A stretch of 61,338 nt of DNA, the filler included. It is 4 parts of 4 records of this genome, joined end to end, with 100 filler letters (N's around TTAATTAATTAA, not from the genome) between each part and the next. Parts side by side here need not be neighbours in the genome. Positions count along the whole stretch, not along the records: positions 1 to 16,727 come from SRR20825010_5703; 3 more parts are not named here. The stretch is one strand, 5' to 3'. This document shows positions 1-16,727 of the stretch, piece after piece (the first letter of the stretch is position 1; each line of letters opens with the position of its first letter). Position numbers and translations under genes: made by a program. The notes beneath the pieces were generated by a model. The model saw nothing but the letters and a program-made list of their open reading frames with translations. It searched no databases and was not told the origin of the DNA.

Positions 1-288
1 TATGTATTGCTAACAACCACTGACACTCCCAATAAATCTGGGAATTATCAAATAACGAAGGAAAATGAATTTCTTGAAAATATAAGTTATAATTATAGCC
101 GAAACGAAAGTAAACTGCATTATTTAAATTCAGAAAATTGGAAAGGTGCGCAAGTGTACAAAAGCATAGACGACCTTTTTGAATCTATTGCAGAAGCCAA
201 TACCATCAATAGTTTTTGGAAATGGTTTGCTATTTTTGCATTGCTATTTTTACTAATTGAAATGCTTATTTTAAAATTTCACAAATGA
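1..288 (+). CDS. C-terminal fragment of a membrane-anchored protein (BatA-domain/N-terminal double-TM family-like), 5' end outside window
   Basis: Frame is open from base 1; ends in NYSRNES...FWKWFAIFALLFLLIEMLILKF, a C-terminal TM tail; stop overlaps next start (ATGA). Confidence 0.6.
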   Translation, partial: YVLLTTTDTPNKSGNYQITKENEFLENISYNYSRNESKLHYLNSENWKGAQVYKSIDDLFESIAEANTINSFWKWFAIFALLFLLIEMLILKFHK

Positions 289-1541
289 AGATTTTACTGA
301 AATCCGCCACCATTGTTGATGCTTCAAGCAAACACCATCTAAAAAAACGAGATGTTTTAATAGAGAATGGTAAAATTTCGAATATTGCTGCATCCATTCC
401 TTCTTCAGAAAAAATAAAGGAAATTAAATTGAAAAACCTTCACATTTCCCAAGGTTGGTTTGATAGTAGCGTTTCATTCGGTGAACCCGGTTTTGAAGAA
501 CGTGAAACCATTGAAAACGGGTTAAAAACAGCCGCTCACAGTGGTTTTACGAGTGTAGCTGTAAACGCAAATAGTTTTCCTGTAACAGATAGCAAAGGGC
601 ATATAAAGTTTATAAAATCGAAAGCAGAAGGGAATGCAGTAAACCTCTACCCTATTGGCGCGCTGACCGTTGGAAGTAAAAGTACTGATTTGGCTGAATT
701 GTTTGATATGCAAAACGAAGGAGCTGTTTCCTTTTACGATTATAAAAAACCAATTCAGAATGCAAATCTGCTTAAAATAGCCTTACAGTACACCCAAAGT
801 TTTGACGGTTTGGTACAATCGTTTCCTTTTGAAAAATCTGTAGCCACAAATGGAGTGGTTAACGAAGAAGCAAACAGTACACGATTGGGTTTAAAAGGAA
901 TTCCTGCACTTTCAGAAGAACTTCAAATAATACGAGATTTATATATTTTAGAATATACAGGCGGTAAACTTCATATTCCAACTATTTCAACAAAAAAATC
1001 TGTGGAGCTTATCCGTGACGCTAAGAAAAAAGGACTTAAAATTACGTGTAGCGTTGCTATTTTCAACCTTGCGCTGACCGATAATGTATTTGAAGGTTTT
1101 GATACAAATTATAAAATTCTTCCCCCCTTACGAACTCAAGATGATGTAAAAGCATTGTTGAAAGGGCTAAAAGATGGAACTATTGATGGCGTTACCAGCG
1201 ACCATAACCCAATTGATGTGGAACATAAAAAAACTGAATTTGAACATGCTCAGTTTGGAAGCATTGGTCTTGAAAGCTGCTTTGGAGCTTTAAACAAGCT
1301 GATAGGTTTTGAAGAATCGGTAAAAGCACTAACAGGTTTAAAAAATGCTTTTAATATTACTTCAGAAAAAATTGAAGAAGGCACTACTGCCGAAATAACG
1401 CTTTTTAATCCTGATGAAAGCTGGGAGTTTTTTGAAAAGGACATCGTATCTACTTCAAAAAACGCTGCCCTTTTAGGTACAAAACTTAAGGGAAAAGTGT
1501 ACGGAATTATAGCAAACAACCAATTGGCATTAAATAAATAA
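285..1541 (+). CDS. pyrC: Dihydroorotase-family protein (amidohydrolase fold), probably non-catalytic PyrC'-like
   Basis: GEPGFEERETI, GFTSVA, PPLR, DGTIDGVTSDHNP, GSIGLE motifs; the HxH metal motif reads DSSVS. Confidence 0.8.
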   Translation: MKILLKSATIVDASSKHHLKKRDVLIENGKISNIAASIPSSEKIKEIKLKNLHISQGWFDSSVSFGEPGFEERETIENGLKTAAHSGFTSVAVNANSFPVTDSKGHIKFIKSKAEGNAVNLYPIGALTVGSKSTDLAELFDMQNEGAVSFYDYKKPIQNANLLKIALQYTQSFDGLVQSFPFEKSVATNGVVNEEANSTRLGLKGIPALSEELQIIRDLYILEYTGGKLHIPTISTKKSVELIRDAKKKGLKITCSVAIFNLALTDNVFEGFDTNYKILPPLRTQDDVKALLKGLKDGTIDGVTSDHNPIDVEHKKTEFEHAQFGSIGLESCFGALNKLIGFEESVKALTGLKNAFNITSEKIEEGTTAEITLFNPDESWEFFEKDIVSTSKNAALLGTKLKGKVYGIIANNQLALNK

Positions 1542-1861
1542 TGAAAAATTCTTCCCCAAGAAAATCTACCGCTTTAATAGCTTACGCCCCATTTGTAGGC
1601 TTTTTGATAGCTTATTACATTAATAAGGATGAAAAGGAGTCTTTTACAACTTGGCATATAAAAAACATGTTTGGGCTAACAATTTTATTTATTAGCTCGC
1701 TTATAGTGCAATCGCAAATAAGTTATACTGTTGGCGATATTTTATGGTTGCTTTGCTGTATAATTTGGCTTTATTGTTGGGCAATGGCTTATTTCAGCAA
1801 AACGAAGGGGATTCCTTTTTTAAGTGAAAAATTCCAAGATTGGTTTACGTTTTTAGACTAA
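1541..1861 (+). CDS. Small 3-TM membrane protein (DUF4870-like)
   Basis: 106 aa hydrophobic; IAY..GFLIA, WHIKN and IPFLSEKFQDWF resemble the next ORF. Confidence 0.7.
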   Translation: MKNSSPRKSTALIAYAPFVGFLIAYYINKDEKESFTTWHIKNMFGLTILFISSLIVQSQISYTVGDILWLLCCIIWLYCWAMAYFSKTKGIPFLSEKFQDWFTFLD

Positions 1862-1914
1862 AGTATTGAGTATCTTTAACTGATTACAAAACACGAACCA
1901 AAAACTCAAACAAA

Positions 1915-2235
1915 ATGGAAACAACAGACAACGGCAAATTAGTTGCCATCATTTCATATTTTAGTCTAATAGGCTGGATTATCGCCTTAATACTAAATAA
2001 CGGAAACAAAACAACATTAGGCTCTTTTCATGTACGTCAATCTTTAGGCATTATGTGTGTGGGTGTGCTTTTAACCATGCTAGCAAGCTTTGTTAGTATT
2101 CCACTTTTAAGCTGGATAGTTTGGGCTGGAGTTGTTGTACTTTGGATTTTAGGAATTTTAAGTGCAATTCAAGCTGAAATGAAACCCGTTCCAGTATTGG
2201 GGGAACAATTTCAAGAATGGTTTAAAGGACTTTAA
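1915..2235 (+). CDS. DUF4870-like small membrane protein
   Basis: 106 aa; AIISY..IGWIIA, FHVRQSLG, KPVPVLGEQFQEWF. Confidence 0.75.
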   Translation: METTDNGKLVAIISYFSLIGWIIALILNNGNKTTLGSFHVRQSLGIMCVGVLLTMLASFVSIPLLSWIVWAGVVVLWILGILSAIQAEMKPVPVLGEQFQEWFKGL

Positions 2236-2250
2236 ATTTTAGAGAATTTT

Positions 2251-2303
2251 AACGAGACCTTTTATGCTGAAAATCGTTCAGTTTAAAAGGTCTTGTTTAT
2301 TTT
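2251..2303 (+). terminator. Probable intrinsic terminator hairpin
   Basis: AACGAGACCTTTTA...TAAAAGGTCTTGTT inverted repeat followed by a T-rich tract. Confidence 0.55.
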
Positions 2304-2311
2304 TGCAAACT

Positions 2312-2968
2312 ATGGAAAAACAGACTTTACTTTTAGAACATAATTACCGACCAGCACAGAATCCAACAGAAAATCCACCAGCTATAATTATGCTGCATGG
2401 TTTTGGAAGTGATGAAAACGATTTGTTTTCTTTTGCAGCCGAATTGCCAAAAAAATATGCAGTAATCTCACTAAAAGCACCAATTAGGCTTGAGCCCTAC
2501 GGAAATGCTTGGTATAACATCTATTTTGATAATGATCAAGGCAAATTTAGTGATGATGAACAGGCAATTGCTTCAAGAGAACTGGTGTCTAAATGTATCG
2601 ATGAAGTTATTGAAAAATATAAAGTAGCTAGCAACAACATTACACTTCTTGGGTTTAGTCAAGGTACAATTTTGAGTTTTTCAATAGCGCTTAGTTATCC
2701 TGAAAAAGTGAAAAATGTAATCGGCCTAAGTGGATATATAAATGAAAAAATATTAAAAGAAGGCTATTCTGAAAACGATTTCAACGCCCTTAATATTTAT
2801 ACTTCTCACGGCAGCGTAGACCAAGTTATTCCAGTAGATTGGGCTAGAAAAACGAAACCTTTTCTTGATAATTTAAATATAAATTGCTCGTATTCAGAGT
2901 TTCCAGTTGGTCACGGTGTTGCCCCACAGAATTTCTTTGAACTAAAAAACTGGCTTGAAAAACACTAA
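2312..2968 (+). CDS. Phospholipase/carboxylesterase (alpha/beta hydrolase)
   Basis: LHGFGS, GFSQG nucleophile elbow, HGSVDQVIP, GHGV; start moved to ATG 2312 because the track start lies inside the hairpin. Confidence 0.88.
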   Translation: MEKQTLLLEHNYRPAQNPTENPPAIIMLHGFGSDENDLFSFAAELPKKYAVISLKAPIRLEPYGNAWYNIYFDNDQGKFSDDEQAIASRELVSKCIDEVIEKYKVASNNITLLGFSQGTILSFSIALSYPEKVKNVIGLSGYINEKILKEGYSENDFNALNIYTSHGSVDQVIPVDWARKTKPFLDNLNINCSYSEFPVGHGVAPQNFFELKNWLEKH

Positions 2969-2996
2969 AACAAAATACATTTAGCCTTAAAATAAA

Positions 2997-3491
2997 TTAA
3001 TTGGGATAGAGAAATGAACTTATCGTTTTAAGTTCAAGTTTATTATTTTCACTAAAATAATATTCTAAAATCATTTCTCCCCAATATTTTCCATCAGTAA
3101 ATTCAGTAATAATCCATTTATGGTTTAAAAACTTCAACTTGTTTATTTTCATATCGCCGTCCATCCCTTCAAATGGAACTAATGGGTTGTTACCTTTCAC
3201 AAAATTGTATTCATAAATAGCATCAGAAACCATAGTTTCAACATCCTTAGCTTCATACCCCATATTTTCTAAATACGTCATTGCATTATCATTTCCTTGG
3301 AGTGTGAAATAATTTAAATCTGAAATTTTAGTGTGGAGCACTTCAATAGAATCACTTTCCTTCTGAACCGATTCCTGCAAGCGTTCTATTTGGTTTTCTT
3401 GCGCTTCAAAGATGCTCTTTTCATTCATATATTGATAAATTATAAAGAGTAAAGCGAAAAGAAACAGGTATAAAAATATTTTATTTCTCAT
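2997..3491 (-). CDS. Conserved hypothetical protein with N-terminal membrane anchor and short coiled coil
   Basis: 164-aa ORF, hydrophobic N-terminus, LNHKWII and YWGE segments; 2 nt downstream of the MBL gene. Confidence 0.7.
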   Translation of the reverse strand: MRNKIFLYLFLFALLFIIYQYMNEKSIFEAQENQIERLQESVQKESDSIEVLHTKISDLNYFTLQGNDNAMTYLENMGYEAKDVETMVSDAIYEYNFVKGNNPLVPFEGMDGDMKINKLKFLNHKWIITEFTDGKYWGEMILEYYFSENNKLELKTISSFLYPN

Positions 3492-3493
3492 AA

Positions 3494-4270
3494 TTATATA
3501 GTTATTGTAAGTGTATCATAAGCCAAATGTACGTTTTTAGGAAGTCTTTTTTCTACTGCTTCATGAAACCCCATTACGTGGCTAATATGTGTAAAATAAG
3601 TTGTTTTAGGTTTAACTTTTTCAACAAAATCTAATGCTTCAGAAGTATTGAAATGCGAATAATGCAATTCTTCACGAAGGGCATTTATTACTAAAATTTT
3701 TGTGCCACGTACTTTTTTAATTTCTTCATCTGAAATTGTTTTTACATCTGTTAAATAAGTAAAATCTTCCACTCGAAAACCTAAAACTGGAAGTTTATCG
3801 TGAAACGCTTCAATAGGAATCACTTTTTTCCCTCCAATAGTAAAAGGAGTGGTTTTATCAATTTCAACAGATTCTATACTTGGAGCCCCAGGATATTTAT
3901 TTACAGTAGCAAAAATATACGCAAAACGCTCTCGTAACGATTCAAAAACCCGCTTATGGGCGTAAAAAGGCATGTTTCCATGCTTAAAATTGAAGGGCCT
4001 AATATCGTCTAATCCCGCAGTATGATCACTGTGTTCATGTGTAAGTAGAATACCATCAACTTTTGAAACATTTTCGCGTAACATCTGCTGGCGGAAATCG
4101 GGACCACAATCAATTACAAAATTAAATCCATCCCAAGACAATAAAACAGATACCCTCAAGCGTTTATCTTTAGAATCGGTACTTTTACAAACCTCATGAT
4201 CACTACCAATTACAGGGATTCCTTGAGAAGTTCCAGTGCCGAGAAAGGTAACAGTGAATGTTGATTTCAT
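3494..4270 (-). CDS. MBL-fold metallo-hydrolase (PhnP-like)
   Basis: LGTGTSQGIP, DCGPDFRQQ, THEHSDHTAGLDD, YLTD, THISH. Confidence 0.92.
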   Translation of the reverse strand: MKSTFTVTFLGTGTSQGIPVIGSDHEVCKSTDSKDKRLRVSVLLSWDGFNFVIDCGPDFRQQMLRENVSKVDGILLTHEHSDHTAGLDDIRPFNFKHGNMPFYAHKRVFESLRERFAYIFATVNKYPGAPSIESVEIDKTTPFTIGGKKVIPIEAFHDKLPVLGFRVEDFTYLTDVKTISDEEIKKVRGTKILVINALREELHYSHFNTSEALDFVEKVKPKTTYFTHISHVMGFHEAVEKRLPKNVHLAYDTLTITI

Positions 4271-4275
4271 TCTTG

Positions 4276-4324
4276 CAAAAATACTGGTATTTTTTTTGTT
4301 TACCTATTGTATTTGCTACCTTTG
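4276..4324. promoter_or_regulatory. Divergent Bacteroidota sigma70-type promoters
   Basis: Plus strand TTTG (4295-4298) and TACCTTTG (4317-4324); minus strand TATTTTTG (4276-4283); both match the TAnnTTTG -7 consensus. Confidence 0.6.
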
Positions 4325-4349
4325 TTACTAAGAAATTTATATAATTGTT

Positions 4350-5801
4350 ATGCCGGAAACCATATTAGGTGACAAGGAATTTGAAAATATTCCATCCATA
4401 AAAAGTAAGGCTTTACGAATCAACCTCAACGAAAACATTTACGGTACTTTTGCCGAAATTGGAGCTGGACAGGAAACTGTGCGTAATTTTTTTAGGGCAG
4501 GTGGCGCCTCTGGGACCATTGCAAAAACAATGTCTGCCTATGATAAAGACTTTAGCGACGCTATCTACGGAATTGAAGAAGACGGAAGGTATGTTACTGA
4601 AGCTAGGCTTATTAAAATGCTTTCTCATGAAATAAACTTGATTGAGGAACGTATAATTCGTAAAAAACACCCAAACAAACTTTTCTTTGCCTTTGCAAAT
4701 ACTGTAGCTACTATCGATTTTGCAAAACAATATAAAGGGCATGGTTGGCTAGGTATTCGGTACCAAGTTGACCCTAAAGAACCTTATAATGAGATAACGC
4801 TTCACGTTCGTTTTCATGAAAATGATGCACAACTACAGCAAATTACACTAGGAATACTTGGTGTAAATTTAATTTATGGCGCATTTTATAAATACGATCA
4901 ACCAAAAAAATTGCTTCGTTATTTGTATGACCATATTGATAAAGATAAAATTGAAATAGACACGGTAAACTTTTCTGGACCTCGTTTTCAAGGTGTCGAC
5001 AACCGTTTAATGAGCCTTCAGCTTATTAAAAATGGCATGACAGATGCAGTTATGTTTGGCTCTGACGGCCATAATATATTGCCAGCGCGAATTCTTTATA
5101 AGAAAAACATTCTTGCTCTTCGCGGAAGTTTTAGACCTGTAACAAAGGTTAATATTGATATGTTTGAACGTTCATATGAAATGTTTCTCAATGAAAATAG
5201 AGTAGAAAAAGAACGTACTGAAGTTATTTTTGAAATCACTCTTTCAAACCTTCGCGCAGAAGGTGAAATTGATGAAGAGGATTTTATGGACCGCGCAAAA
5301 TTACTTTGCTCCCTTGGCCATACCGTAATGATTTCAAATTTCCAAGAATATTACAAACTGGTGGAATACTTTTCGCGATACACAAAAATGCGAATGGGCT
5401 TAGCAATGGGCGTTAACAACCTAGTTGATGTTTTTGACGAAAAATATTACCGTCATTTAAGCGGTGGAATTCTTGAAGCTTTTGGAAAACTTTTCTTTAA
5501 AGATTTGAAGGTATACCTATACCCAATGAAAGACCCTGAAACTGGAGAATATACTAATAGTGAAAACCTTAAAGTTCATCCACGAATGAAGGAGTTGTAT
5601 AAATTCTTCAAATACAACGGCAAAGTGGTTGATATTGATGAATATAATCCAGCAATTATGGATATTTTTTCCAGAGAAGTACTTGCCAAAATTGAAAATG
5701 GCGAAGAAGGCTGGGAAGAAATGTTACCTGCTGGTGTCTCTGAAATTATAAAAAGTAAAAATCTATTTGGGTGTAGACCTGAAGAAACGAAAGTTGACTA
5801 A
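4350..5801 (+). CDS. Nucleotidyltransferase-fold protein (NadD-like C-terminal domain, CinA/PncC-like N-terminal region)
   Basis: ALRGSFRPVT, AMGVNNL, MDIFSREV, MLPAGVSEIIKSKNLF parallel NadD motifs; N-terminal AEIGAG..GGASG..AY. Confidence 0.55.
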   Translation: MPETILGDKEFENIPSIKSKALRINLNENIYGTFAEIGAGQETVRNFFRAGGASGTIAKTMSAYDKDFSDAIYGIEEDGRYVTEARLIKMLSHEINLIEERIIRKKHPNKLFFAFANTVATIDFAKQYKGHGWLGIRYQVDPKEPYNEITLHVRFHENDAQLQQITLGILGVNLIYGAFYKYDQPKKLLRYLYDHIDKDKIEIDTVNFSGPRFQGVDNRLMSLQLIKNGMTDAVMFGSDGHNILPARILYKKNILALRGSFRPVTKVNIDMFERSYEMFLNENRVEKERTEVIFEITLSNLRAEGEIDEEDFMDRAKLLCSLGHTVMISNFQEYYKLVEYFSRYTKMRMGLAMGVNNLVDVFDEKYYRHLSGGILEAFGKLFFKDLKVYLYPMKDPETGEYTNSENLKVHPRMKELYKFFKYNGKVVDIDEYNPAIMDIFSREVLAKIENGEEGWEEMLPAGVSEIIKSKNLFGCRPEETKVD

Positions 5802-6250
5802 TTAAGTATTTGAGCTGCGTGCTCTTTGGTTTTCACTTTATCAATTACTCGATCAACAATTCCGTTTTCATTGATAACGAATGTTTTTCTATGAATTCCA
5901 TTGAACTCCCTGCCCATAAACTTTTTTGGTCCCCAAACACCAAAAGCGTTTATAACTTCTTTGTTTTCATCTGCCAATAATGGAAACGGAAAACGGTATT
6001 TTTCTTTAAAGTTTTTTTGTCTTTTTTCGCTATCAGCACTTACACCCAGCAACTCATAACCTTGTTGTTGTAATTCTTCATAATTATCGCGAAGGTTACA
6101 CGCTTCGGTTGTACAACCTGGAGTACTCGCTTTTGGATAGAAAAAAACAACCCATTTCTTCCCTTTATAATCTTCTGAAGAAATACTATTTCCATCCTGA
6201 TCGTTTACTGTAAAAGATGGAGCCTTATCCCCTGCTTGTAATGTTTTCAT
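5798..6250 (-). CDS. bcp: Thioredoxin-dependent thiol peroxidase (BCP/PrxQ)
   Basis: FYPKASTPGCTTEAC motif; probable start MKTLQAG at 6250. Confidence 0.93.
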   Translation of the reverse strand: MKTLQAGDKAPSFTVNDQDGNSISSEDYKGKKWVVFFYPKASTPGCTTEACNLRDNYEELQQQGYELLGVSADSEKRQKNFKEKYRFPFPLLADENKEVINAFGVWGPKKFMGREFNGIHRKTFVINENGIVDRVIDKVKTKEHAAQILN

Positions 6251-6281
6251 AATCCTTATTTTTGCATAAAAATACTTAAAA

Positions 6282-6938
6282 ATGACCAAGCAAGAAAAGG
6301 TAGTTTTTGTAATTGATACATTAAATGAAATTTATCCTCAAATTCCAATTCCTTTAGATCATAAAGACCCGTACACATTGCTTATTGCTGTGCTACTTTC
6401 TGCTCAAAGCACAGATGTTAGGGTAAACAAAATAACGCCTTTACTTTTTGAAGTTGCAGACAATCCCTACGATATGGTAAAACTTTCTGTAGAAGAAATT
6501 AGGGAAATCATAAAACCCGTTGGGCTATCACCGATGAAATCTAAAGGAATTCATGGACTTTCAAAAATGCTTATAGAAAAACACAATGGAATCTTACCAG
6601 CAGATTTTGAAGCTTTAGAATCATTTCCTGCCGTTGGCCATAAAACGGCAAGTGTGGTTATGAGTCAGGCATTTAATGTTCCAGCTTTCCCTGTAGATAC
6701 GCACATTCATAGACTAATGTACCGCTGGGGATTTACAAATGGTAAAAACGTAGTACAAACAGAAAAAGATGCAAAACGTTTGTTTCCAAGAGATTTATGG
6801 AATAGGCTTCACCTTCAAATTATTTGGTATGGAAGGCAATATTCTCCAGCGCGAGGCTGGGATTTGGAAAAGGATATAATTACCAAAACTATTGGTAGAA
6901 AAACGGTTATTAATGACTATTTAATGAAGAAAAAATGA
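6282..6938 (+). CDS. nth: Endonuclease III (HhH-GPD glycosylase) lacking the Fe-S cluster motif
   Basis: LLSAQSTDVRVN, AVGHKTA, FPVDTHIHR; upstream TATTTTTG -7 element at 6257-6264. Confidence 0.9.
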   Translation: MTKQEKVVFVIDTLNEIYPQIPIPLDHKDPYTLLIAVLLSAQSTDVRVNKITPLLFEVADNPYDMVKLSVEEIREIIKPVGLSPMKSKGIHGLSKMLIEKHNGILPADFEALESFPAVGHKTASVVMSQAFNVPAFPVDTHIHRLMYRWGFTNGKNVVQTEKDAKRLFPRDLWNRLHLQIIWYGRQYSPARGWDLEKDIITKTIGRKTVINDYLMKKK

Positions 6939-6963
6939 ATTTTAGACCGAACGGTTTAAAAAC

Positions 6964-6996
6964 AAAAAACCCTGAAACGTTAATTTCAGGGTCTTT
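6964..6996. terminator. Bidirectional intrinsic terminator between convergent genes
   Basis: AAAAAACCCTGAAA-cgttaa-TTTCAGGGTCTTT. Confidence 0.75.
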
Positions 6997-7003
6997 CCAA
7001 AGT

Positions 7004-7156
7004 TTAGTTTAGAAGCGCTTCAAACTTCAATTTATTATAATCTATAACACTTAAAGCCATTGAGTAATCCAGAAGAAATTTTATAGTTTCCTCTTTTGGA
7101 ACAAGTTTTTTATTCACGTCGTCCACACGTGATGTTTCAGAGTAAAATTTTTGCAT
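7004..7156 (-). CDS. 50-aa small protein missed by the ORF track
   Basis: Manual translation ATG(7156) to TAA(7004): MQKFYSETSRVDDVNKKLVPKEETIKFLLDYSMALSVIDYNKLKFEALLN; fills the gap between the sigma gene and the terminator. Confidence 0.75.
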   Translation of the reverse strand: MQKFYSETSRVDDVNKKLVPKEETIKFLLDYSMALSVIDYNKLKFEALLN

Positions 7157-7213
7157 AGAGTTGTTATTTCGAGGTTTATTTTCAAATAACGTCGCAAAAA
7201 TTATATTATTGTA

Positions 7214-7798
7214 TTAATTTGTTAATATAATATTATGTTTATCAATTACTTTACGCAAATTAATAAGTGCGTAACGCATTCTTCCCAGTGCAGTATTGAT
7301 ACTAACACCTGTTTGCTCACTAATTTCCTTAAAACTCATGTCTTTATAAATTCGCATCATTAAGACTTCTTTTTGGTCATCTGGCAGTTCTTGAATCAAT
7401 CTTCTTACATCGTTTTCAACCTGCCCTTTTATCATTTGTTTTTCAATATTTAGGGCATTATCACTCAACACTGAAAATATATTAAAATCAGTATTGTTTT
7501 CAAATTTGGGCATGCGGTTGTTTTTTCTGAAGTGATCTATCACCAAATTATGGGCGATACGCATAACCCAAGGTAGAAATTTTCCTTCCTCATTGTACGC
7601 ACCTCTTTTTAAAGTTCGAATAACTTTAATGAAAGTGTCTTGAAAAATGTCTTCAGAGACATCTCTATCAAATACTTTGGAGTAAATAAAACTGTAGATT
7701 CGTTGCTTATGGCGTATAATAAGTTCACCAAGTGCAGATTCGTCACCGTTAATATAGGCGTTCACTAGAAACGCGTCAGAGCTATTGCTTTGCTTCAT
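7214..7798 (-). CDS. RNA polymerase ECF sigma-70 factor
   Basis: Region 2 EDIFQDTFIKV...WVMRIAHNLVIDHFR; region 4 LPDDQKEV..MSFKEISEQTGVSINTALGRMRYA. Confidence 0.93.
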   Translation of the reverse strand: MKQSNSSDAFLVNAYINGDESALGELIIRHKQRIYSFIYSKVFDRDVSEDIFQDTFIKVIRTLKRGAYNEEGKFLPWVMRIAHNLVIDHFRKNNRMPKFENNTDFNIFSVLSDNALNIEKQMIKGQVENDVRRLIQELPDDQKEVLMMRIYKDMSFKEISEQTGVSINTALGRMRYALINLRKVIDKHNIILTN

Positions 7799-8052
7799 AT
7801 CAATACTTTTTTAAAAAATAAACAACTAGAGACTAGGTTGCTTGATTAAAATGTTTATTTGTTAAAAGTAAAGATCAGCTATAGGCAATATTTTTTTTAA
7901 ATGACGTTAAGAGCCGTAAATATAACAACAAAGAAATCACAAATGCAAAAAAAAGGTTAAATTTTTCTATAAATTAATAATAATAACTCCAAATGTGCTT
8001 TGATGAAACTGATATAGTATCTTTGTAAAAGCTATTAGAAAGGAGAAAAAAA

Positions 8053-10830
8053 TTGAATACGGAAACAGTAGATACCAAAAAAAGCATCCTCATTCAAGGA
8101 GCTAAACTTCATAATCTTAAAAATATTACGGTTGCCATTCCTCGCAATAAATTGGTCGTTATTACCGGTCTTTCTGGGAGTGGAAAATCTAGCCTTGCTT
8201 TCGATACACTATATGCAGAAGGCCAAAGACGCTACGTAGAAAGCCTTTCCAGCTATGCACGACAGTTTTTAGGAAGGCTAGATAAACCAAAAGTAGACTC
8301 CATAAAAGGTATTGCGCCAGCCATTGCAATAGAGCAAAAAGTAAATTCTACAAACCCCAGATCTACAGTAGGTACCTCTACGGAGTTATACGATTATTTG
8401 AAATTACTTTACGCCCGAATCGGAAAAACCATTTCACCGGTTTCTGGTAAAGAAGTAAAAAAAGATACTACAACTGATGTTATAAATTTCATAAAAAACT
8501 TTCCTGACGGCGAAAAACTCCTTCTTCTCGCTCCTATTCATTTGGAAGAAGGACGGACTATGGAAAACAAAATAAATGCCTTGGCGCAACAAGGATATTC
8601 CAGAGTAAAAATTGATGGCGAAGTAGTACGAATTGATGAAATTAATAAGAAATCTTTTCCAGAGAAAATTGATTTGGTTGTAGACCGCATCATCACAAAA
8701 GATGAAGAAGATTTTTACAACCGCCTTGCCGATGCAATTGAAATAGCCTTTTTCGAAGGAAAAGGAGAATTGTATATTGAAACGCTTTCTTCAAAAACAA
8801 TTACTGAATTCAACAACCGCTTTGAAGCAGATGGCATGTTGTTTATGGAGCCAAATGTGCATCTTTTTAGCTTCAATAATCCGTATGGAGCGTGTCCTGT
8901 TTGTGAAGGTTATGGCGATGTTATTGGTATTGATGAAGACTTAGTAATTCCAAATACAGCGCTTTCCATTTATGAAAACGCTATATTTCCGTGGCGTGGA
9001 GATAGCATGAGTTGGTATAGAGATCAGCTTGTAAACAATGCTTATAAATTTGATTTTCCAATTCACAAACCTTGGTTTCAGCTTACCGATGCGCAAAAAC
9101 AATTGGTTTGGGATGGAAATAGTTATTTTGAGGGATTGAATTCATTCTTTTCGTTTTTAGAATCCAAAAGCTATAAAATTCAAAATCGCGTAATGCTTTC
9201 ACGCTATCGCGGAAAAACAAAATGTGCCACTTGCAAAGGAAAACGACTTCGCCCTGAAGCTGCTTATGTAAAAATTAACGGCACCGCAATTCAAGAATTG
9301 GTAGAATTACCTTTAGATAAAGCGGCTTTTTTCTTTAAAAACCTTGAACTTCCAGAATATGAAGCGAATGTTGCCAAGCGCCTTTTGCTTGAAATTAACA
9401 ACAGAATCAGATTTTTAAGAGATGTTGGTTTGGGTTATTTAACACTCAACAGAAAATCAAATACTCTTTCTGGAGGAGAATCGCAACGTATTAACCTTGC
9501 AACCTCACTAGGAAGCAGTCTTGTGGGCTCTATGTATATTTTAGACGAACCAAGTATTGGTCTTCACCCAAAGGATACAGAAAGGCTTATCGTGGTTTTA
9601 AAAGCATTGCGAGATATAGGTAATACAGTAATTGTGGTTGAACACGATGAAGATATTATGAAAGCAGCCGATGAAATTATAGACATTGGCCCCGAAGCGG
9701 GAACTTATGGAGGCGAAGTGGTTGCACAAGGAAATTATGCCGAAATATTGCGTTCCGAATCCCTTACCGCGAAATACTTAAATGGGGAAATGGAAATTGA
9801 AGTCCCAAAAAAGCGACGTACTTCAAAAAACAAAATTACCATATCTGGGGCGCGGCAGAATAATCTTAAAAATATAGATGTAACCTTTCCGCTTAATGTT
9901 TTTACAGCAGTAACAGGTGTTTCTGGAAGTGGAAAGAGTACTTTAGTTAAAAAAATTCTTTATCCTGCACTTATGCGGGAAATTGGCGGTTACGGTGAAA
10001 AGCCTGGACAGTTTTCAGAAATAAAAGGAGATTTTGGCACCATCAAAAGTATTGAGTTTATCGACCAAAATCCTATTGGTCGTTCCAGCCGAAGCAATCC
10101 TGTTACTTATATAAAGGCATACGATGATATTCGTAATTTGTATGCTTCACAGAAACTTTCAGACATTCGTGCCTACAAAGCGAAACATTTTTCTTTCAAC
10201 GTAGATGGCGGTCGCTGTGAAACCTGTAAAGGAGAAGGTGAAGTAACCATAGAAATGCAATTTATGGCCGATGTGCATTTGGTGTGCGATACTTGCAATG
10301 GCAAACGCTTCAAAAAAGAAGTACTTGAAGTTACTTTTCAAAATAAAAATATAGACGACATCCTAACAATGACCGTTGATGATGCCGTGGCTTTCTTTGG
10401 GGAACACAAGCAAAATAAGATTGCTGCAAAATTGCAACCATTACAAGATGTTGGCCTTGGCTATGTACAACTGGGGCAAAGCTCATCTACGCTTTCAGGC
10501 GGTGAGGCACAGCGTATAAAGCTTGCTTCGTTTTTAGTGAAAGGGACTTCAAAAGAAAAAACCGTTTTTATTTTTGATGAACCAACAACTGGGCTTCACT
10601 TTCACGATATTAAAAAATTGCTCGCTTCCTTTTATGCCTTGTTAGATAGAGGCCATACCGTTATTGTGGTAGAGCACAATTTAGATTTAATAAAGTGTGC
10701 AGATCATATTATTGATTTGGGCCCTGAAGGTGGTGAAAACGGTGGACAAGTAATTGCTGAAGGCACTCCAGAAGAAATTGCCAAGAACAAAGAATCTTTT
10801 ACTGCCGAATATTTGAGAGAGAAAATTTAA
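8053..10830 (+). CDS. uvrA: Excinuclease ABC subunit A
   Basis: Two Walker A motifs ([16 protein letters not shown]), two LSGGE signatures, CxxC zinc fingers, [19 protein letters not shown]; upstream TATCTTTG at 8018-8025. Confidence 0.97.
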
Positions 10831-10842
10831 TTTTACGCTTTT

Positions 10843-10857
10843 TGGCACAGTAATTGA
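10843..10857 (+). promoter_or_regulatory. Putative sigma54 (-24/-12) promoter
   Basis: TGGCAC-AGTAA-TTGA versus consensus TGGCAC-N5-TTGC. Confidence 0.6.
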
Positions 10858-10868
10858 AAATACACTAC

Positions 10869-10944
10869 CAGAAAACAGATTTTAGTTTTTTTGGTTGGTT
10901 TTAAAAATCCGTTGTAAGTGATTAAACACTTCAGCGGATTTTTT
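10869..10944 (+). ncRNA. Candidate sigma54-dependent small RNA (~75 nt)
   Basis: ORF-free interval between the -24/-12 box and a terminator (AAAAATCCGTTG...CAGCGGATTTTTT); contains TAGTTTTTTTGGTTGGTT. Confidence 0.5.
10903..10944 (+). terminator. Intrinsic terminator
   Basis: AAAAATCCGTTGTAAGTG-attaaa-CACTTCAGCGGATTTTTT hairpin with T tract. Confidence 0.75.
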
Positions 10945-11108
10945 GTTGGTATGCTTTTTCTTCGAATATAATTTTCAAAGGAAAACCCTTTTCCATATGT
11001 AATAAAAAAGAAATAGAAATTAAATTTTTAGCTATTTAAGTTTTGAAGCATGGGTTTTAATAGCTGCTTTTTTGAATTTTCACACTGTTAATCAGCACTT
11101 TAAAATTA

Positions 11109-11123
11109 TGGCACGGTCGTTGG
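11109..11123 (+). promoter_or_regulatory. Putative sigma54 promoter of the downstream secreted protein
   Basis: TGGCAC-GGTCG-TTGG, about 70 nt upstream of ATG 11193. Confidence 0.55.
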
Positions 11124-11192
11124 TTATTTATAAGCGTACACAACTTACTAAAAAATAGTAAAGCAAGTACAAACCTTTAAAATTTGAAACTT

Positions 11193-12341
11193 ATGAAAAA
11201 CATAGCATTTATTTTCAGCATCCTCTTAATGGGATTTTCAGCAAATGCAACTTCCATTGAAGACGAAAACAATAACCGAAGAGGTTATGACGGTAACGCA
11301 TACATCTTTGTTGAAGGCGACGTAGAATTCTCCATCTTTCCTGATGGTCAATTTGACTTTGTATATGTAGGACCGCAATCAGGTTCCCGTGTTGCAATCA
11401 GCTCTCCTAATGTAAACATAAGTTTCAATTCTGGGTACGATTATGAAGCCTATGTGCAATACGATGATTATGGCGCAGTAATACAAATAGAAAGTGTTCC
11501 TATCTATTATGATGAATACGGGCGTATAGCGCAAGCAGGAAATGTTGATATTCAATATAACGATAGACGCATTGTTCGTGTGGGTGGTTTACATGTAGTT
11601 TATAACAACTACGGGTATTTTTCACACGTAACTGGAGCAATAAATTTTTTCAACCCATATTATGTATATCGCCCTTGGCATGTGTATTATGCAAGACCTA
11701 TTTATAGCCACTGTGTAGTTTACGATACTCCTTATAGAAGATATTACAACCCTATTCGTTATAGCTACCACCAACATGTGGTTTACTATAAGAATAGAAA
11801 TCGTACAGCGTATAATAACGGTAGAAGAGATTTCTACAGACCAGGAAGTCGTGTTTACGATAAAAATGGAAGGGTTTCAGTAAACAAAAATTACAACCCA
11901 AACCGTACAAACACCATGATTACTTCAACAGGTCGAAACAATACTTCTGTTCGAACTAACAATACACGTAACACGGTAACTAGAAATAGTAATACCGCTG
12001 CAACGAATGTTCGTAACTCGGCTAACACCCGAAATAACACTACAACTAGCGTGAAGAACACACGCAGTGAAAATGTAGTACGTACAAATACTAGAAGCAA
12101 TACTAACACCCGAACTGTTTCAACAGGAAGAAGTTCTCAGACACAGCAAGTACGAAGCACTCCTTCAAATCAAAGAAGCAGCTCTGTAACACGAAATACA
12201 ACTCAATCTCCAAAAAGAGAAGTTACGAGCCGTAGTAGTACCGTAAAAAGGTCTAGTACACCTACACGAAGCAGTAGTAAAGTAAGTACAAGTTCCTCCC
12301 GAGGTAACTCTAGTAGTACGAGTAGCAGAACAAGAGGTTAA
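11193..12341 (+). CDS. Secreted hypothetical protein with Tyr-rich middle and long disordered Arg/Ser/Thr/Asn tail
   Basis: Signal peptide MKNIAFIFSILLMGFSANA; FVEGDVEFSIFPDGQFDF, YDDYGAVIQIE; low-complexity C-terminus. Confidence 0.8.
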   Translation: MKNIAFIFSILLMGFSANATSIEDENNNRRGYDGNAYIFVEGDVEFSIFPDGQFDFVYVGPQSGSRVAISSPNVNISFNSGYDYEAYVQYDDYGAVIQIESVPIYYDEYGRIAQAGNVDIQYNDRRIVRVGGLHVVYNNYGYFSHVTGAINFFNPYYVYRPWHVYYARPIYSHCVVYDTPYRRYYNPIRYSYHQHVVYYKNRNRTAYNNGRRDFYRPGSRVYDKNGRVSVNKNYNPNRTNTMITSTGRNNTSVRTNNTRNTVTRNSNTAATNVRNSANTRNNTTTSVKNTRSENVVRTNTRSNTNTRTVSTGRSSQTQQVRSTPSNQRSSSVTRNTTQSPKREVTSRSSTVKRSSTPTRSSSKVSTSSSRGNSSSTSSRTRG

Positions 12342-12365
12342 AAATAGTTTTTTGGTTGGTTGGTT

Positions 12366-12410
12366 AAACCTTCGTGATTCGCCTAGGCGAAGATCGGAGG
12401 TTTACCTTTT
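12366..12410. terminator. Hairpin terminator between convergent genes
   Basis: AAACCTTCG..TTCGCC-ta-GGCGAA..CGGAGGTTT. Confidence 0.65.
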
Positions 12411-13688
12411 TAGGGTGTGTATTAAAGCAGCCATTTGTTTCGTTAATACGCGACGGCTATACTTTTCAATCCCTTCAGAAGAAATAATCAACTCTCCCTT
12501 TTTGAAATTTTCATAATAGTGAAGAATTTCAGCCTTTAACACATCATCATCCCAATAACTGAAAAACTTCCCAGAATTTGTTTCTGTAATAGTCCCTTCA
12601 ATATCACTTTCCTTTGGTCCCAAAGCAACAATTGGGCGTTTAGCAGCCAAATATTCAAAAAGCTTTCCCGGAATTATAGCGCGCGTTTCCGCGCTATTTA
12701 TTTCTACCAAAAGTAAAACTTGACTTTGCTTTTGAAGTTTTAATGCTTCGGAATGTGACACATATCCTAAAAAACTACAATTAGATAGTAACTGAAAATC
12801 TTCAAGACTTTTCTTTATTTCTTCACTAACAGCACCAGCAAATTTTAACTGCAAATCGTTTTTAAACGAAGCATTTTCGCTACATAGTTCCGCCAATACT
12901 TTCCATAAAACTTCAGGGTTTCGTTCACTAAGCAACGAACCTATATGTGAAATTGAAAAGGTGGAATCCATCACAAAATCGAATGGCTCGCTAGCATCAA
13001 ACCCATTTGTAATCACCGCTATTGGAGTTTCTGATATCATTTCAAATTCCTTTTTGGTGGTTGGGCTGGTTACTGTAATTAGATCTGCTGTTTTTAAAAC
13101 AGACGCTTCAAGCATTTTATGTTTGCGTTCCGAAGTTTTACTTAATCGGAGCGATTTGTGATAGTGAATCGTTGTCCATGGATCTCGAAAATCTGCAATC
13201 CATTTTAAACCTAATTCTTTTTGAAGTTGCATCCCGATTAGATGTAAACTGTGTGGCGGACCCGTTGTAATTACTACGTCTATTGGGTTTTTTAAAATAT
13301 ATTTTGAAAGAAATTTAACCGAAGGTTTTACCCATCCAATTCGTGCATCGGGAATAAAAAAGTTGCCGCGTACATAAAGCATTAATTTTTCAATTGCTGA
13401 AATTTCCTTTTTTGAAATAATCCCACTGCTTATCTGTTTTGTTTTCTTTTTTGAAAAAAGCTTCGCGAAACGATAGGGTTCTGAAATTGGTTGCTTTATT
13501 ATTTGAATATCGAAAGGGATTTCTGATGAAAAATTTTCATCAACCAAAGGGTAATTAGGGTTTTCAGGTACGTAAACAATTGGTTCTACATCAAATTCCC
13601 TAAAATATTTTACAAATTTTAACCATCGCTGTACGCCGGGGCCACCCGCTGGAGGCCAATAATATGTGATGATTAGCGCTTTCTTCAT
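12402..13688 (-). CDS. Glycosyltransferase family 4 protein
   Basis: YYWPPAGGPGVQRW, TGPPHSLHLIG, ADFRDPW, PGKLFEYL. Confidence 0.9.
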   Translation of the reverse strand: MKKALIITYYWPPAGGPGVQRWLKFVKYFREFDVEPIVYVPENPNYPLVDENFSSEIPFDIQIIKQPISEPYRFAKLFSKKKTKQISSGIISKKEISAIEKLMLYVRGNFFIPDARIGWVKPSVKFLSKYILKNPIDVVITTGPPHSLHLIGMQLQKELGLKWIADFRDPWTTIHYHKSLRLSKTSERKHKMLEASVLKTADLITVTSPTTKKEFEMISETPIAVITNGFDASEPFDFVMDSTFSISHIGSLLSERNPEVLWKVLAELCSENASFKNDLQLKFAGAVSEEIKKSLEDFQLLSNCSFLGYVSHSEALKLQKQSQVLLLVEINSAETRAIIPGKLFEYLAAKRPIVALGPKESDIEGTITETNSGKFFSYWDDDVLKAEILHYYENFKKGELIISSEGIEKYSRRVLTKQMAALIHTLKR

Positions 13689-16123
13689 TATTCTTTAACT
13701 TCTTTTTTCAAAAAAGCAAAATACAATCCGCTCAATAAAATAAGAAGAAAAATAATACTGCTCACCAAAGAAATGGTACTTCCTGTTTCAATTACTTTTG
13801 GTTCAAATTTAAACTCAATCTTGTTGTTTCCAGAAGGGATAATCATCGCTCTTAGCACATAATTAGCACGGAAATATTCCGCAGGTTTTCCATTTATATA
13901 TGCGTTCCAACCTTGTGGGTAATACACTTCAGAAAAAACAACCAACTGTTCCGTTTTTGTAGCAGCCTCATATACCAAGTGATTCGGCTGATAGCTAAAA
14001 AGCTCAATAGTTGCGGTGCTATCGCGTTCTATGTTTTTATTTGGAATTTTTGAAAGAAAAGCTGTATTAATTACAGCAGTTTTTTTAGTATTCAAACTAT
14101 CTAAAAGTTGTATTTCTTCATCTGCATTTGAAGCAGGCTGTACATTTTCAACAAACCAAGCATCGCCATTGGCATAAGGATTTCGTTGTGAAACTGCGCC
14201 CCCATTTTTAGATTGAGTGATGATGTAGCGCACATTCATCATATTCAGGATTCCGATGTTTCCTTTGCTTATGTAAAACTCAAACAAATCCTGCATTCTA
14301 CCTGGTTTTGCAGCATGATACCCCCCCAAAGCGTTGTGGTAATAACTTGCGCGACCACTATTAAACGCGTTTGATGTAGCATCATAAACACGATAATGAC
14401 CTTCATCTTCTAAAATCTGAGCATCTGCACCGTTTTTCTGAAAAGGTTCTTCAATAACTTTTGCTTGCACAAAGTTGTCTTCATTCACATAACGTCTGTT
14501 AACCCCTACTAAATCTATCAAAACCAAAACTGTAAGTGCAGCAATTGCAAACCCATTTTTAAGTTTTCCTATCATATAAAACCATAAAACGGCGGCGGTG
14601 AGTGCAACAAAAATCAACGAGCGAATGGCATCTGATGTAAAAAGTGCCATTCTATCTTCGCGTATCGCTTCCAAAAATGGCAAGCCCATTTCATCTCTAA
14701 AATAACTATCATACGGACTCGCAAAATCGAATAACGAAGCTTTAAAAAGGATAAAAATAAGTGTAAGCCCACCAACAATTCCAGTAGCCCAAAGCAAGGC
14801 TTTTTTCTTTTCTTCTTCTTTATCAAACTTATTAAAAAATTGATGTAAACCAACAATTGCAAGTATTGGAAGAATAAGTTCAATTATCACTTGTATGGAA
14901 GAAACTGCTCGAAATTTATTGTACATCGGGAAGTAATCAATAAAAAATTCTGAAAGTCCGCTGAAATTTTTCCCCCATGATAAAAGCAGTGTTAAAACAA
15001 AAGTTGAAACCACCCACCATTTCAATCGTCCGCGAATTAAAAACAAAGCCAAAACTGAAAGAAATATAACAATTGCTCCAATATAGGCAGGAGCTCCCAC
15101 GAAAGTTTGGTCGCCCCAATACATCGGAATTTGGTTTAATATTTGATTTGCTTCTTGCGAAGAAGCCCCCATTCGCATTAAACTTTCTACGGTTTTTGAA
15201 TCTTTCGGAAATTCTTCTGAAGAACTTCCTCCCATAAATCGCGGAATAAACAGGTTAAAACTTTCCAGTTTTCCGTAGCTATATTCGGTTATATAATCAA
15301 AATCTAATCCTGTGTTATAATCTTTTGGCGTGCCATCTGCGTTGATAGTCAGCTCCGTTTTTCCTCGTGTTGAGGAATCTGCATATTCCTTGGTTGCTAA
15401 AATATTTGTGGCATTTAAGCCAACGGCAATTAAAACACCAAAAGCCATGATGCCAACAGCTTTAAAGTAATGTGACAAGAGTTTTTTCTTAAAAGCATCT
15501 ATTAAATAAACGATGCCAATAATAAGGACTAAAAGCATCAAATAATACGTCATCTGGAAGTGATTTGCAACCAATTCCAACGCCATTGAGACTGTTAGTA
15601 ATACGAATCCCCACAAATATTTTCTTTGAAATGTGAGAAATATACCACTTAATACAAAAGGCATATACGCTATTGCGTGCGCTTTTGCATTGTGACCTAC
15701 GCCTAAAATAATTATTAAATAGGTTGAAAAACCAAATGCTAATGCCCCGAGAAAAGCTAGTTTATAATCTACTTTTAATACTAAAAACAATATGTACATT
15801 CCAATAAAATAAAGGAATAGATAATCTGCTGGGCGTGGTAAAAACCGAATGACTAAATCGAGTTGTTTTATGTAATTATTTGGGTATTTCGCGCCCAATT
15901 GATAGGTTGGCATTCCTCCAAAAGCCGCGTCAGTCCAGTATGTTTCTTCGCCTGTAGCTTCACGAAAATCGTTTTGCTGTTTAGCCATTCCAGTATATTG
16001 CACAATATCACTTTGGAATATTTTTTTTCCCTGTAAAACTGGATTAAAATATGCAAGTGAAGCAATTATAAATAAAACAAAAACAACTAAATGAGGAAGA
16101 AATTTTTTGTAGCTGGGATGCAT
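13688..16123 (-). CDS. YfhO family membrane protein (GT-C-like)
   Basis: 811-aa polytopic membrane protein; FGGMPTY, NHFQMTYY, GGYHAAK, FSEVYYPQGWNAYING. Confidence 0.85.
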   Translation of the reverse strand: MHPSYKKFLPHLVVFVLFIIASLAYFNPVLQGKKIFQSDIVQYTGMAKQQNDFREATGEETYWTDAAFGGMPTYQLGAKYPNNYIKQLDLVIRFLPRPADYLFLYFIGMYILFLVLKVDYKLAFLGALAFGFSTYLIIILGVGHNAKAHAIAYMPFVLSGIFLTFQRKYLWGFVLLTVSMALELVANHFQMTYYLMLLVLIIGIVYLIDAFKKKLLSHYFKAVGIMAFGVLIAVGLNATNILATKEYADSSTRGKTELTINADGTPKDYNTGLDFDYITEYSYGKLESFNLFIPRFMGGSSSEEFPKDSKTVESLMRMGASSQEANQILNQIPMYWGDQTFVGAPAYIGAIVIFLSVLALFLIRGRLKWWVVSTFVLTLLLSWGKNFSGLSEFFIDYFPMYNKFRAVSSIQVIIELILPILAIVGLHQFFNKFDKEEEKKKALLWATGIVGGLTLIFILFKASLFDFASPYDSYFRDEMGLPFLEAIREDRMALFTSDAIRSLIFVALTAAVLWFYMIGKLKNGFAIAALTVLVLIDLVGVNRRYVNEDNFVQAKVIEEPFQKNGADAQILEDEGHYRVYDATSNAFNSGRASYYHNALGGYHAAKPGRMQDLFEFYISKGNIGILNMMNVRYIITQSKNGGAVSQRNPYANGDAWFVENVQPASNADEEIQLLDSLNTKKTAVINTAFLSKIPNKNIERDSTATIELFSYQPNHLVYEAATKTEQLVVFSEVYYPQGWNAYINGKPAEYFRANYVLRAMIIPSGNNKIEFKFEPKVIETGSTISLVSSIIFLLILLSGLYFAFLKKEVKE

Positions 16124-16262
16124 AAATTGGACTTAAAATTATGAAGAGGGGAAATTATGAAAAATAATTCAGAAAACTTGGCAAACATGACTAAAGGAAA
16201 ACTCTCAAAAGTTTTAACTAAAGTATTCAAAATGAAACTTTACTTTAAATGCAAACATTTTT

Positions 16263-16526
16263 TTAATCTACTTCTTCAAACTCCACGTATTCTCCAACTT
16301 TTTTACTGGAACGTGAATTGGCAGCAGGATTTTTATCAATAGTAATACTTCCTTCTTTTTCTTGCGAAGTATTCATGTTTGGGTTATTTCCGAAGAATTG
16401 CTCAAACTGTTGTCCTGCTTTTTTCGAAATATAGCGCATTAAATAAGGTGTAGCGAGCTTAATTAAAAATTTAAGCCCGAAATATACCAGAAGAACGATT
16501 AATATCGTTTTTAGGAATGTCATCAT
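16263..16526 (-). CDS. DUF4834-like small membrane protein
   Basis: N-terminal TM helix, C-terminal GEYVEFEEVD; start at ATG 16526 or 16523. Confidence 0.75.
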   Translation of the reverse strand: MMTFLKTILIVLLVYFGLKFLIKLATPYLMRYISKKAGQQFEQFFGNNPNMNTSQEKEGSITIDKNPAANSRSSKKVGEYVEFEEVD

Positions 16527-16632
16527 AATAGTCAAATTCTTTCCAAAAATAAGGATTGATGCAGAAAAAGACGAATATTGACTATTAAATTATTGGTAAA
16601 ATCTTATATCTTTGAACTAAACCCAACATTTC

Positions 16633-16727
16633 ATGAATAGCAAACTTCCTTTTTTATTTCTGTTCTTTTTTATACCGTTTTTAAATGCTTCGGCACAGTA
16701 TACTGAAATGATAAACACCAACCGTCC
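16633..16727 (+). CDS. 5' fragment of a secreted/outer-membrane protein, cut by contig end
   Basis: MNSKLPFLFLFFFIPFLNASAQYTEMINTNRP (signal peptide ending ASA-Q); TATCTTTG at 16607-16614. Confidence 0.6.

Follow-up and report, generated by a model that had tools for sequence, protein, structure and literature searches.

Behind the uvrA gene in this flavobacterial DNA lies a short non-coding region that ends in a hairpin followed by a T-run. Does this region only close the uvrA transcript, or is it the gene of a small RNA (sRNA) in its own right? The window, that is, the whole stretch of DNA analyzed here, is 61,338 nucleotides (nt) long and consists of parts of four records joined with N filler between them, of which SRR20825010_5703 supplies positions 1 to 16,727. 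In this part, a −24/−12 promoter box of the sigma-54 type, a U-rich motif, and an intrinsic terminator follow one another between uvrA and a downstream gene, called geneB hereafter. We found that the element is real and strongly conserved; it is very probably an sRNA gene, and we regard it as a probable sigma-54-dependent sRNA, whose transcription, start site, sigma-54 dependence, base-pairing, and targets we infer from the features described below.

Structure of the unit between uvrA and geneB

The box TGGCAC-AGTAA-TTGA occupies positions 10843–10857 of the + strand, 12 bases after the uvrA stop codon (TAA, 10828–10830), and is preceded by a T-run; TGGCAC lies at 10843–10848 and TTGA at 10854–10857, with AGTAA between them. 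Sigma-54 transcripts start about 11–13 nt after the −12 element, which puts the predicted 5′ end of the RNA at about 10868–10870 (+ strand); a variable 5′ segment then extends to 10882. Next, at 10883–10900 of the same strand, comes a U-run plus GGUUGGUU, together UAGUUUUUUUGGUUGGUU (also TAGTTTTTTTGGTTGGTT), which is the invariant motif and the candidate seed, and which is common to the sRNA Rfp18 discussed below. The intrinsic terminator, a hairpin with a U-tract at 10903–10944 (+ strand), is supported by its fold, by covariation, and by a covariance-model match. Its stem pairs 10908–10920 with 10927–10938 around the loop ATTAAA (10921–10926), and six T residues follow (10939–10944). The A-run at 10903–10907 can lengthen the hairpin and, being on the 5′ side, makes the terminator a two-way one. 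No other hairpin was found from the uvrA stop to 10903, and the uvrA transcripts very probably also end here.

The predicted RNA folds stably: the value for 10868–10945 was −24.6 kcal/mol (z −5.07), which none of 200 shuffled sequences equaled. The sequence TGGCAC-N5-TTG occurs twice in the whole window, as compared with 0.59 expected (15 of 100 shuffled sequences reached at least two), and both copies lie on the + strand of one intergenic region, that between uvrA and geneB. The second of them, TGGCAC-GGTCG-TTGG, is located at 11109–11123, 70 nt upstream of the geneB start codon (11193). TTGGTTRGTT is likewise confined to two places in the window, this unit and the 3′ untranslated region (3′-UTR) of geneB (three overlapping matches, 0.56 expected).

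A preliminary description had placed the box 12 nt after the uvrA stop, the motif at 10883–10900, and a terminator behind it, and every one of these coordinates proved exact. It had also stated that there is no open reading frame (ORF); indeed, the + strand of 10831–11183 has none of at least 40 amino acids (aa), and the predicted sRNA transcript has no ATG. Its layout of promoter box, U-rich GGUUGGUU segment, and terminator thus stands as an autonomous, conserved, non-coding unit. The second box at 11109–11123 is absent from that description.

Conservation and autonomy of the unit

Thirty related loci were retrieved via the geneB protein (50–98% protein identity) from Aequorivita, Ulvibacter, Patiriisocius, and flavobacterial metagenome-assembled genomes. 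In every one of them, geneB is preceded by a TGGCAC-N5-TTG box, by a single GGTTGGTT within 600 nt, and by a hairpin followed by a T-run. A second box 77–95 nt upstream of the geneB start was also present in every locus. The spacer between box and motif varies in both sequence and length, measuring 41–59 nt in Aequorivita and 66–107 nt in the other genera, where an additional 5′ hairpin is frequent. GGTTGGTT was invariant in an alignment of 27 sequences, and the consensus of 42 distinct non-coding box copies was TTTTGGCACacTaATTGaAA, with the neighboring bases varying. The terminator stem covaries: 92.2% of the cells were paired, 7 of the 12 pairs had changed on both sides, and the score was reached by none of 500 shuffles; the pairing in slid controls was 45% at most.

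The position of the unit relative to uvrA is less constant. Another gene separates the two at loci L009 and L020, and other genes also intervene in L026, a record of Ulvibacter antarcticus. In this last locus, box, motif, and terminator form a tandem pair (1566–1720 and 2693–2830), each member behind a gene of about 290 aa, the product of which ends in a putative type-9-secretion sorting domain. In L005 and L042 the unit is present and uvrA is not its neighbor, and in the genome G061 it follows uvrA and geneB is on a different contig. Because the unit persists with intervening genes, without an adjacent uvrA, or in duplicate, it is not a mere appendix of uvrA.

The promoter box and sigma-54

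The flavobacterial sigma-54 regulon comprises heat-shock chaperones and many exported proteins. The genome-level survey for sigma-54 was carried out in G001, which was reached via locus L018 and has a geneB protein 98–99% identical to that of the window, instead of the window's own genome. G001 encodes rpoN (Sigma54_DBD, 171 bits) and five enhancer-binding proteins (Sigma54_activat, 220–243 bits). It contains 22 TGGCAC-N5-TTG sites, as compared with 12 for the reversed control, and six of the former lie in intergenic DNA, directed toward a gene. These six head the unit itself, geneB, HSP70/dnaK (775 bits), a glutamate dehydrogenase gene adjoining an activator gene, and the genes of two proteins without a Pfam family. 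Their −12 elements, that of dnaK included, are TTGT (four), TTGA, and TTGG; therefore, the TTGA of the window, without the consensus C, would be typical of the lineage, in which this C seems to be dispensable. The assignment to sigma-54 made in the preliminary description fits the box, with its conserved GG at −24 and its TTG, and is consistent with the rpoN and activator genes of G001, but the −12 element departs from the consensus TTGC. Sigma-54 is the best available reading of the box, and dependence on rpoN is predicted from it.

The dnaK gene of G001 (locus L075, C2 around 158410) begins 72 nt downstream of TGGCACAATCATTGT. This box suggests that Aequorivita drives a heat-shock gene by sigma-54, as does Flavobacterium psychrophilum, in which dnaK is sigma-54-dependent (PMC9723704). 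In the parts of that study used here, a −24/−12 motif associated with mapped 5′ ends lies upstream of dnaK, groESL, grpE-dnaJ, htpG, lon, clpB, and skp, and it also heads a gliding operon, genes for exported proteins whose function is unknown, and the sRNA Rfp36. A comparative study predicted the same chaperone regulon in Flavobacteriia, and sRNAs are not mentioned in the portions of it consulted (PMC12316311).

Copies of the module in 3′-UTRs and their association with the box

To describe how motif and terminator, referred to together as the module, are distributed, we used a covariance model, R1, built on the 3′ half of the unit. It matched the window unit at 10879–10944 with 73 bits (E 1.6e-13), a copy in the geneB 3′-UTR at 12340–12407 with 25.3 bits, and an orthologue of Rfp18 (L198) with 31.1 bits; matches at E ≤ 0.001 occurred in 98 of 151 family genomes. 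The copy in the geneB 3′-UTR, located by sequence and by the model match, extends over 12345–12411 of the + strand and consists of a U-run, GGUUGGUUGGUU (12354–12365), a hairpin, and a U-tract. In 27 of 30 loci, the geneB stop is followed by the motif within 25 nt, and in a second sample, for which 120 nt were scanned, it was found at +4 to +51 after the stop in 32 of 40. The hairpin of this 3′-UTR faces a convergent glycosyltransferase gene (12402–13688, minus strand).

Among the 29 best model matches, from which the placement of the copies was taken, the module follows the stop codons of geneB, of its paralogue geneA (described below), of a lipoprotein-like gene (L057), and of a gene for an EF-hand protein. 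The lipoprotein-like gene has its own sigma-54-type box in addition to the module in its 3′-UTR. The EF-hand gene, which encodes a small secreted protein (L114, G001:C3 around 167156, and L060), also carries the module in its 3′-UTR, and no sigma-54-type box was found in the 250 nt preceding it. An earlier search of the single genome G001 found a degenerate module after an Hsp20 gene (L034). In many copies, the motif is extended as GGUU GGUU AGUU AGUU repeats. Since the 3′-UTRs of geneB, of a geneA subgroup, and of other mRNAs carry the module, the element of the window is one of a set of seed-sharing RNAs.

A contrast is seen when the copies are divided by what precedes them. Both strands of 101 loci were examined for copies distinct by their 80-nt context with a T4 run 25–85 nt downstream, and TGGYAY-N5-TTG was sought within 135 nt upstream. 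The box precedes 43 of the 56 copies without a preceding long ORF (at least 150 codons) but only 7 of the 79 directly behind one, and these figures represent a contrast and not a probability, because the loci, every one of them selected via geneB, are related to each other. The seven boxed copies behind long ORFs are presumably the geneA loci with a coding box.

Relation to Rfp18 and Rfp36

Rfp18 is a 97-nt sRNA validated in F. psychrophilum (Guerin et al. 2021, PMC9723704). Its sequence in the supplement holds AGUUUUUUGGUUGGUUA shortly before the terminator, and five further rows of homologues there keep this stretch. In the parts of the paper used here, nt 34–63, including the AGUUUUUUGGUUGGUUA stretch, are the region for which CopraRNA predicts pairing with the mRNAs of several proteases and adhesins; the deletion of rfp18 lowers two metalloprotease mRNAs. 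The mapped 5′ end of Rfp18 is assigned to sigma-A (motif SM2), and the gene sits 170 nt before THC0290_0233, a gene of 771 nt (PMC9723704). Searches of the literature and of the supplements of PMC9723704 for a follow-up on Rfp18 or for homologues found none beyond the original paper.

The window has the same U-run plus GGUUGGUUA stretch at 10883–10900, a few bases before an intrinsic terminator, and both RNAs are short and non-coding. Thus, the motif is not new; new is the variant with a sigma-54-type box that carries this seed. The preliminary description had recognized no described family. As far as Rfam goes this is correct: Rfp18 is absent from it, and a scan of 10600–11400 on both strands with Rfam 15 and E values up to 10 assigned no family, the eight matches (eukaryotic snoRNA/miRNA or unrelated families) scoring 10–24 bits against gathering scores of 34–110. 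The segment itself, however, was already known as the predicted pairing region of Rfp18.

The two RNAs differ in several respects. Rfp18 has two extra 5′ hairpins, a GAGGGG...CCCU stem and a AUAAAUUUUCAUAAUUUAU hairpin, which are absent from 10858–10882 of the window, where there is almost no 5′ structure; it has a sigma-A promoter (TAnnTTTG) in place of the sigma-54-type box; and its downstream gene is another one, the window unit lying between uvrA and geneB. When a 24-nt motif was used to search 401 family genomes for Rfp18 orthologues, a single match was obtained (L198, in G174). Because this orthologue has the 5′ hairpins of Rfp18, a sigma-A-like box, and a downstream gene whose start, compared by its beginning and not by a search, is unlike geneB, the window element is a seed-sharing sibling of Rfp18 and not its orthologue. 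G001 itself offers a better look-alike: L105 (C2 around 1061155) is a stand-alone motif with a terminator whose first hairpin is Rfp18-like, located at the place that, in other genera, is taken by the lipoprotein gene with a sigma-54 box and a 3′-UTR module (L057). Another stand-alone copy of motif and terminator is found in L104 (C2 around 870832). The window unit was accordingly rejected as an Rfp18 orthologue, on its promoter, 5′ hairpins, and neighbors and on the closer likeness of L105.

The promoter line of Rfp18, ..TCCCACACTACTTTTGCA.., resembles the Aequorivita sequence TGGCACACTAATTGAAA (10843–10860 in the window), with GG changed to CC plus two extra bases. Speculatively, this one line of the supplement may reflect a switch of promoter class between siblings.

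Rfp36 was also considered as a homologue and was rejected on sequence. Like the unit, this putatively sigma-54-dependent RNA of the same bacterial family is non-coding and stands alone behind a sigma-54 motif (PMC9723704), but it is 202 nt long, and its printed sequence contains no GGUUGGUU motif and does not resemble the window unit.

geneA and the origin of the unit

geneA encodes a paralogue, 200–270 aa long, of the N-terminal domain of the geneB protein and has no Pfam family (L043, 891–1502; loci L199–L228). At 25 of 29 loci it has its own box within 130 nt of the start. In nine geneA loci, a second box is part of the coding sequence, 69–114 nt before the stop, where it forms the codons for W-H-[DE]-[DG]-W (for example, W-H-D-D-W). 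The module is present in the 3′-UTR of 8 of these nine loci, as compared with 3 of the 20 other geneA loci. In the nine loci with an inner box, which are few and related, His is encoded by CAC in 8, and T is the last base of the fourth codon in all nine; for the paralogous W-H of geneB, the His codons are CAC in 19 cases and CAT in 24. This codon usage is suggestive of selection on the inner box, within a small and related sample. In addition, the non-coding box of L025 (Patiriisocius) resembles the coding box of L045 beyond the core. The source of the unit was probably a geneA copy with a box inside it, which would have lost its coding part and left its 3′ end behind; the reverse order, in which the unit preceded the geneA arrangement, may be an alternative history.

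geneB and its leader as a candidate target

geneB (11193–12341, + strand) encodes a 382-aa protein that carries a signal peptide and beta-hairpin repeats, has a tail rich in S/T/R/N with RG at its end, and belongs to no Pfam family. Of 201 Flavobacteriaceae genomes, 164 contain a homologue. In two family-wide samples, 28 of 30 and 39 of 40 loci (67 of 70 in all) have a box no more than 100 nt from the geneB start. Being widespread and almost always led by a box, geneB has the appearance of a core gene of the sigma-54 regulon in flavobacteria. The predicted fold had a mean pLDDT (predicted local distance difference test) of 63.9; a Foldseek comparison of the model with the PDB gave no match at E ≤ 0.001, and the best matches, to YD-repeat shells of Rhs/teneurin proteins, were non-significant (E 0.07–0.5, TM (template modeling) score 0.26).

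The 5′-UTR of geneB contains a conserved stretch at 11141–11164 (+ strand; consensus GCUnACCAAAAAAuuuAAAGC), which is partly complementary to the motif and is a possible target site. In nearly all of 31 loci, the best duplex between seed and leader was located at GCUnACCAAAAAAuuuAAAGC, 45–56 nt before the geneB start, with energies of −6.6 to −22.7 kcal/mol and z ≤ −3 in 6 of the 31. As for exact 10-mer complements of the motif in G001, none lies near a start codon. The geneB mRNA combines a motif-like 3′ end with this partly complementary 5′-UTR stretch.

On the other side of the unit, uvrA (8053–10830, + strand) is an ORF with UvrA_inter, UvrA_DNA-bind, and ABC_tran domains. Divergently upstream of it lies a gene of the sigma-70 family of the extracytoplasmic function type (Sigma70_r2 and r4_2; 7214–7798, minus strand).

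Evaluation of the possible explanations

The explanation that we favor, with a likelihood somewhat better than even, is that the unit is an independent gene for an sRNA of about 75 nt, predicted to be transcribed from the sigma-54-type promoter and to act through its motif. The sigma-54 RNA polymerase would bind the TGGCAC-N5-TTGA box, and an enhancer-binding protein would activate it when envelope or protein-folding stress, the driver of the sigma-54 regulon in flavobacteria, sets in. Transcription would start near 10868 and stop at the hairpin and U-tract of 10903–10944, shared with the uvrA transcripts. The working part would be the invariant single-stranded UUUUUUGGUUGGUU before the terminator, which would most likely base-pair with A-rich, ACC-containing mRNA leaders; one candidate target is the putatively sigma-54-dependent geneB, with the conserved ACCAAAAAA in its 5′-UTR.

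Several observations weigh against this explanation. No transcript was seen: the contigs of three possible RNA runs cover geneB only, from 11206. A simple terminator scan of 10500–11500 gave no site, the stem of the unit having a bulge. The consensus C is missing from the −12 element, no binding site for an activator was noticed (no systematic search for upstream sites was made), Rfp18 itself has a sigma-A promoter, and 13 of the 56 stand-alone module copies have no box. As for the pairing with geneB, the seed and leader of the window itself gave a z of 0.0, the mean over the 31 loci was −1.6 against shuffled leaders, and the leader consensus consists of a 4-bp palindromic stem only, without covariation. 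G001 shows no enrichment of near-complements of the motif (133 sites as compared with 207 for the reversed control), and the best of them are other module copies on the opposite strand. Finally, because the box is coding in nine geneA loci, its presence could be inherited and not selected; nevertheless, inheritance from geneA leaves its retention in non-coding DNA across genera unexplained.

This last point bears on the idea that there is no separate gene here, the hairpin being the two-way terminator of uvrA and box and motif a decaying relic of a lost geneA 3′ end. Nine loci of other genera in which the box is coding and motif and terminator form the geneA 3′-UTR agree with this idea, as do the likeness of the L025 box to the coding box of L045, the lack of another terminator for uvrA, and the lack of an observed transcript. 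A relic, however, is difficult to reconcile with −24 and −12 elements and a spacing that 42 distinct non-coding copies of several genera have kept intact, with geneB only 50–70% identical and the neighboring bases varying, nor does it account for the persistence of the unit without an adjacent uvrA, its duplication in L026, or the excess of boxes at stand-alone copies (43 of 56) over 3′-UTR copies (7 of 79). We judge it improbable. Slightly more improbable still is a promoter of another class; a housekeeping sigma-A promoter could, for instance, make use of the T-run overlapping the box. Rfp18, the sole member with a mapped 5′ end, is assigned to sigma-A (SM2), the −12 element departs from the consensus, and a strict TAnnTTTG, overlapping the T-run and the TG of TGGCAC, is found near 6 of 41 unit copies. 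But it is found in none of the other 35, including the window, where the search covered the region from 60 nt upstream of the box to the motif. Moreover, the conserved parts are TGGCAC and TTG at a fixed spacing, and the same type of box heads dnaK, geneB, and geneA.

A more serious competitor, although still an unlikely one, accepts that the RNA is made and holds that the (R-G-U-U)n motif is not a seed but a protein-binding platform or a signal for 3′-end stability or termination, in which case the sRNA may titrate a protein. The motif stands directly before terminators and after the stops of unrelated genes (geneB, geneA, L057, the EF-hand gene of L114 and L060, and the Hsp20 gene of L034), is often arranged as GGUU GGUU AGUU AGUU repeats, and is invariant, yet has no near-perfect complements near start codons. 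Seed-sharing sRNAs derived from 3′-UTRs would, however, give the same distribution, and no candidate protein is known. Hfq (PF17209) and RRM_1 (PF00076) were not found in G001 by searches that were positive in control genomes; therefore, any protein partner would be of another kind. In addition, the corresponding stretch in F. psychrophilum is predicted to pair with protease and adhesin mRNAs, two of which changed on rfp18 deletion, although pairing is not proven thereby.

The favored sRNA gene can also be placed in a wider frame, which we put forward tentatively and regard as unlikely to hold as a whole. The flavobacterial sigma-54 stress regulon may have a post-transcriptional arm whose RNAs end alike, in the U-run, (R-G-U-U)n, and terminator. 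This 3′ end would be carried by stand-alone sRNAs (the window unit and, under sigma-A, Rfp18) and by the 3′-UTRs of genes with a sigma-54 box: geneB, geneA, the L057 lipoprotein gene, and, perhaps, the Hsp20 gene. Its role would be that of a single seed common to them all or that of a dock for an RNA chaperone in these Hfq-less bacteria. The locus would then also record the birth of an sRNA, in which an internal sigma-54 promoter in the W-H-D-D-W codons of geneA outlived its gene and now drives the old 3′-UTR.

Comparison with known systems

RNA regulation in Bacteroidota is, to our knowledge, poorly known: these bacteria are without Hfq, few sRNAs have an assigned function, and we know of none tied to a sigma-54 regulon. 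Rfp18 is the only functionally studied flavobacterial sRNA of which we are aware. Against this background, the element is a concrete candidate: it is conserved widely, its seed is clear, a sigma factor that would induce it can be predicted, and a possible target lies next to it. It ties Rfp18 to a larger set of RNAs and 3′-UTRs sharing the module, so that work on the motif informs many loci, and the relation between the geneA coding sequence and the promoter is a testable example of an sRNA gene arising from the end of a protein gene.

Outside the phylum, the promoters of GlmY and GlmZ in Enterobacteriaceae are sigma-54-dependent. Like the unit, GlmY and GlmZ are sRNA genes, and the portions consulted of a study that treats their transcriptional regulation mention sigma-54 often (PMC3045617). 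They differ from the unit in their unrelated sequence and phylum and in acting through a protein-titration cascade on glmS. As regards the probable origin of the unit, MicL and DapZ are sRNAs of the 3′-UTR type with promoters inside the upstream coding sequence; the geneA subgroup is like them in having a sigma-54-type box in the coding sequence before the stop. GlnZ, which is released from the glnA mRNA (PMC9731577), is another sRNA of the 3′-UTR type. What the unit has in common with this type is a seed directly ahead of the terminator that ends the mRNA. The window unit differs from these sRNAs in that the coding part is gone, and the box, the seed, and the terminator are left.

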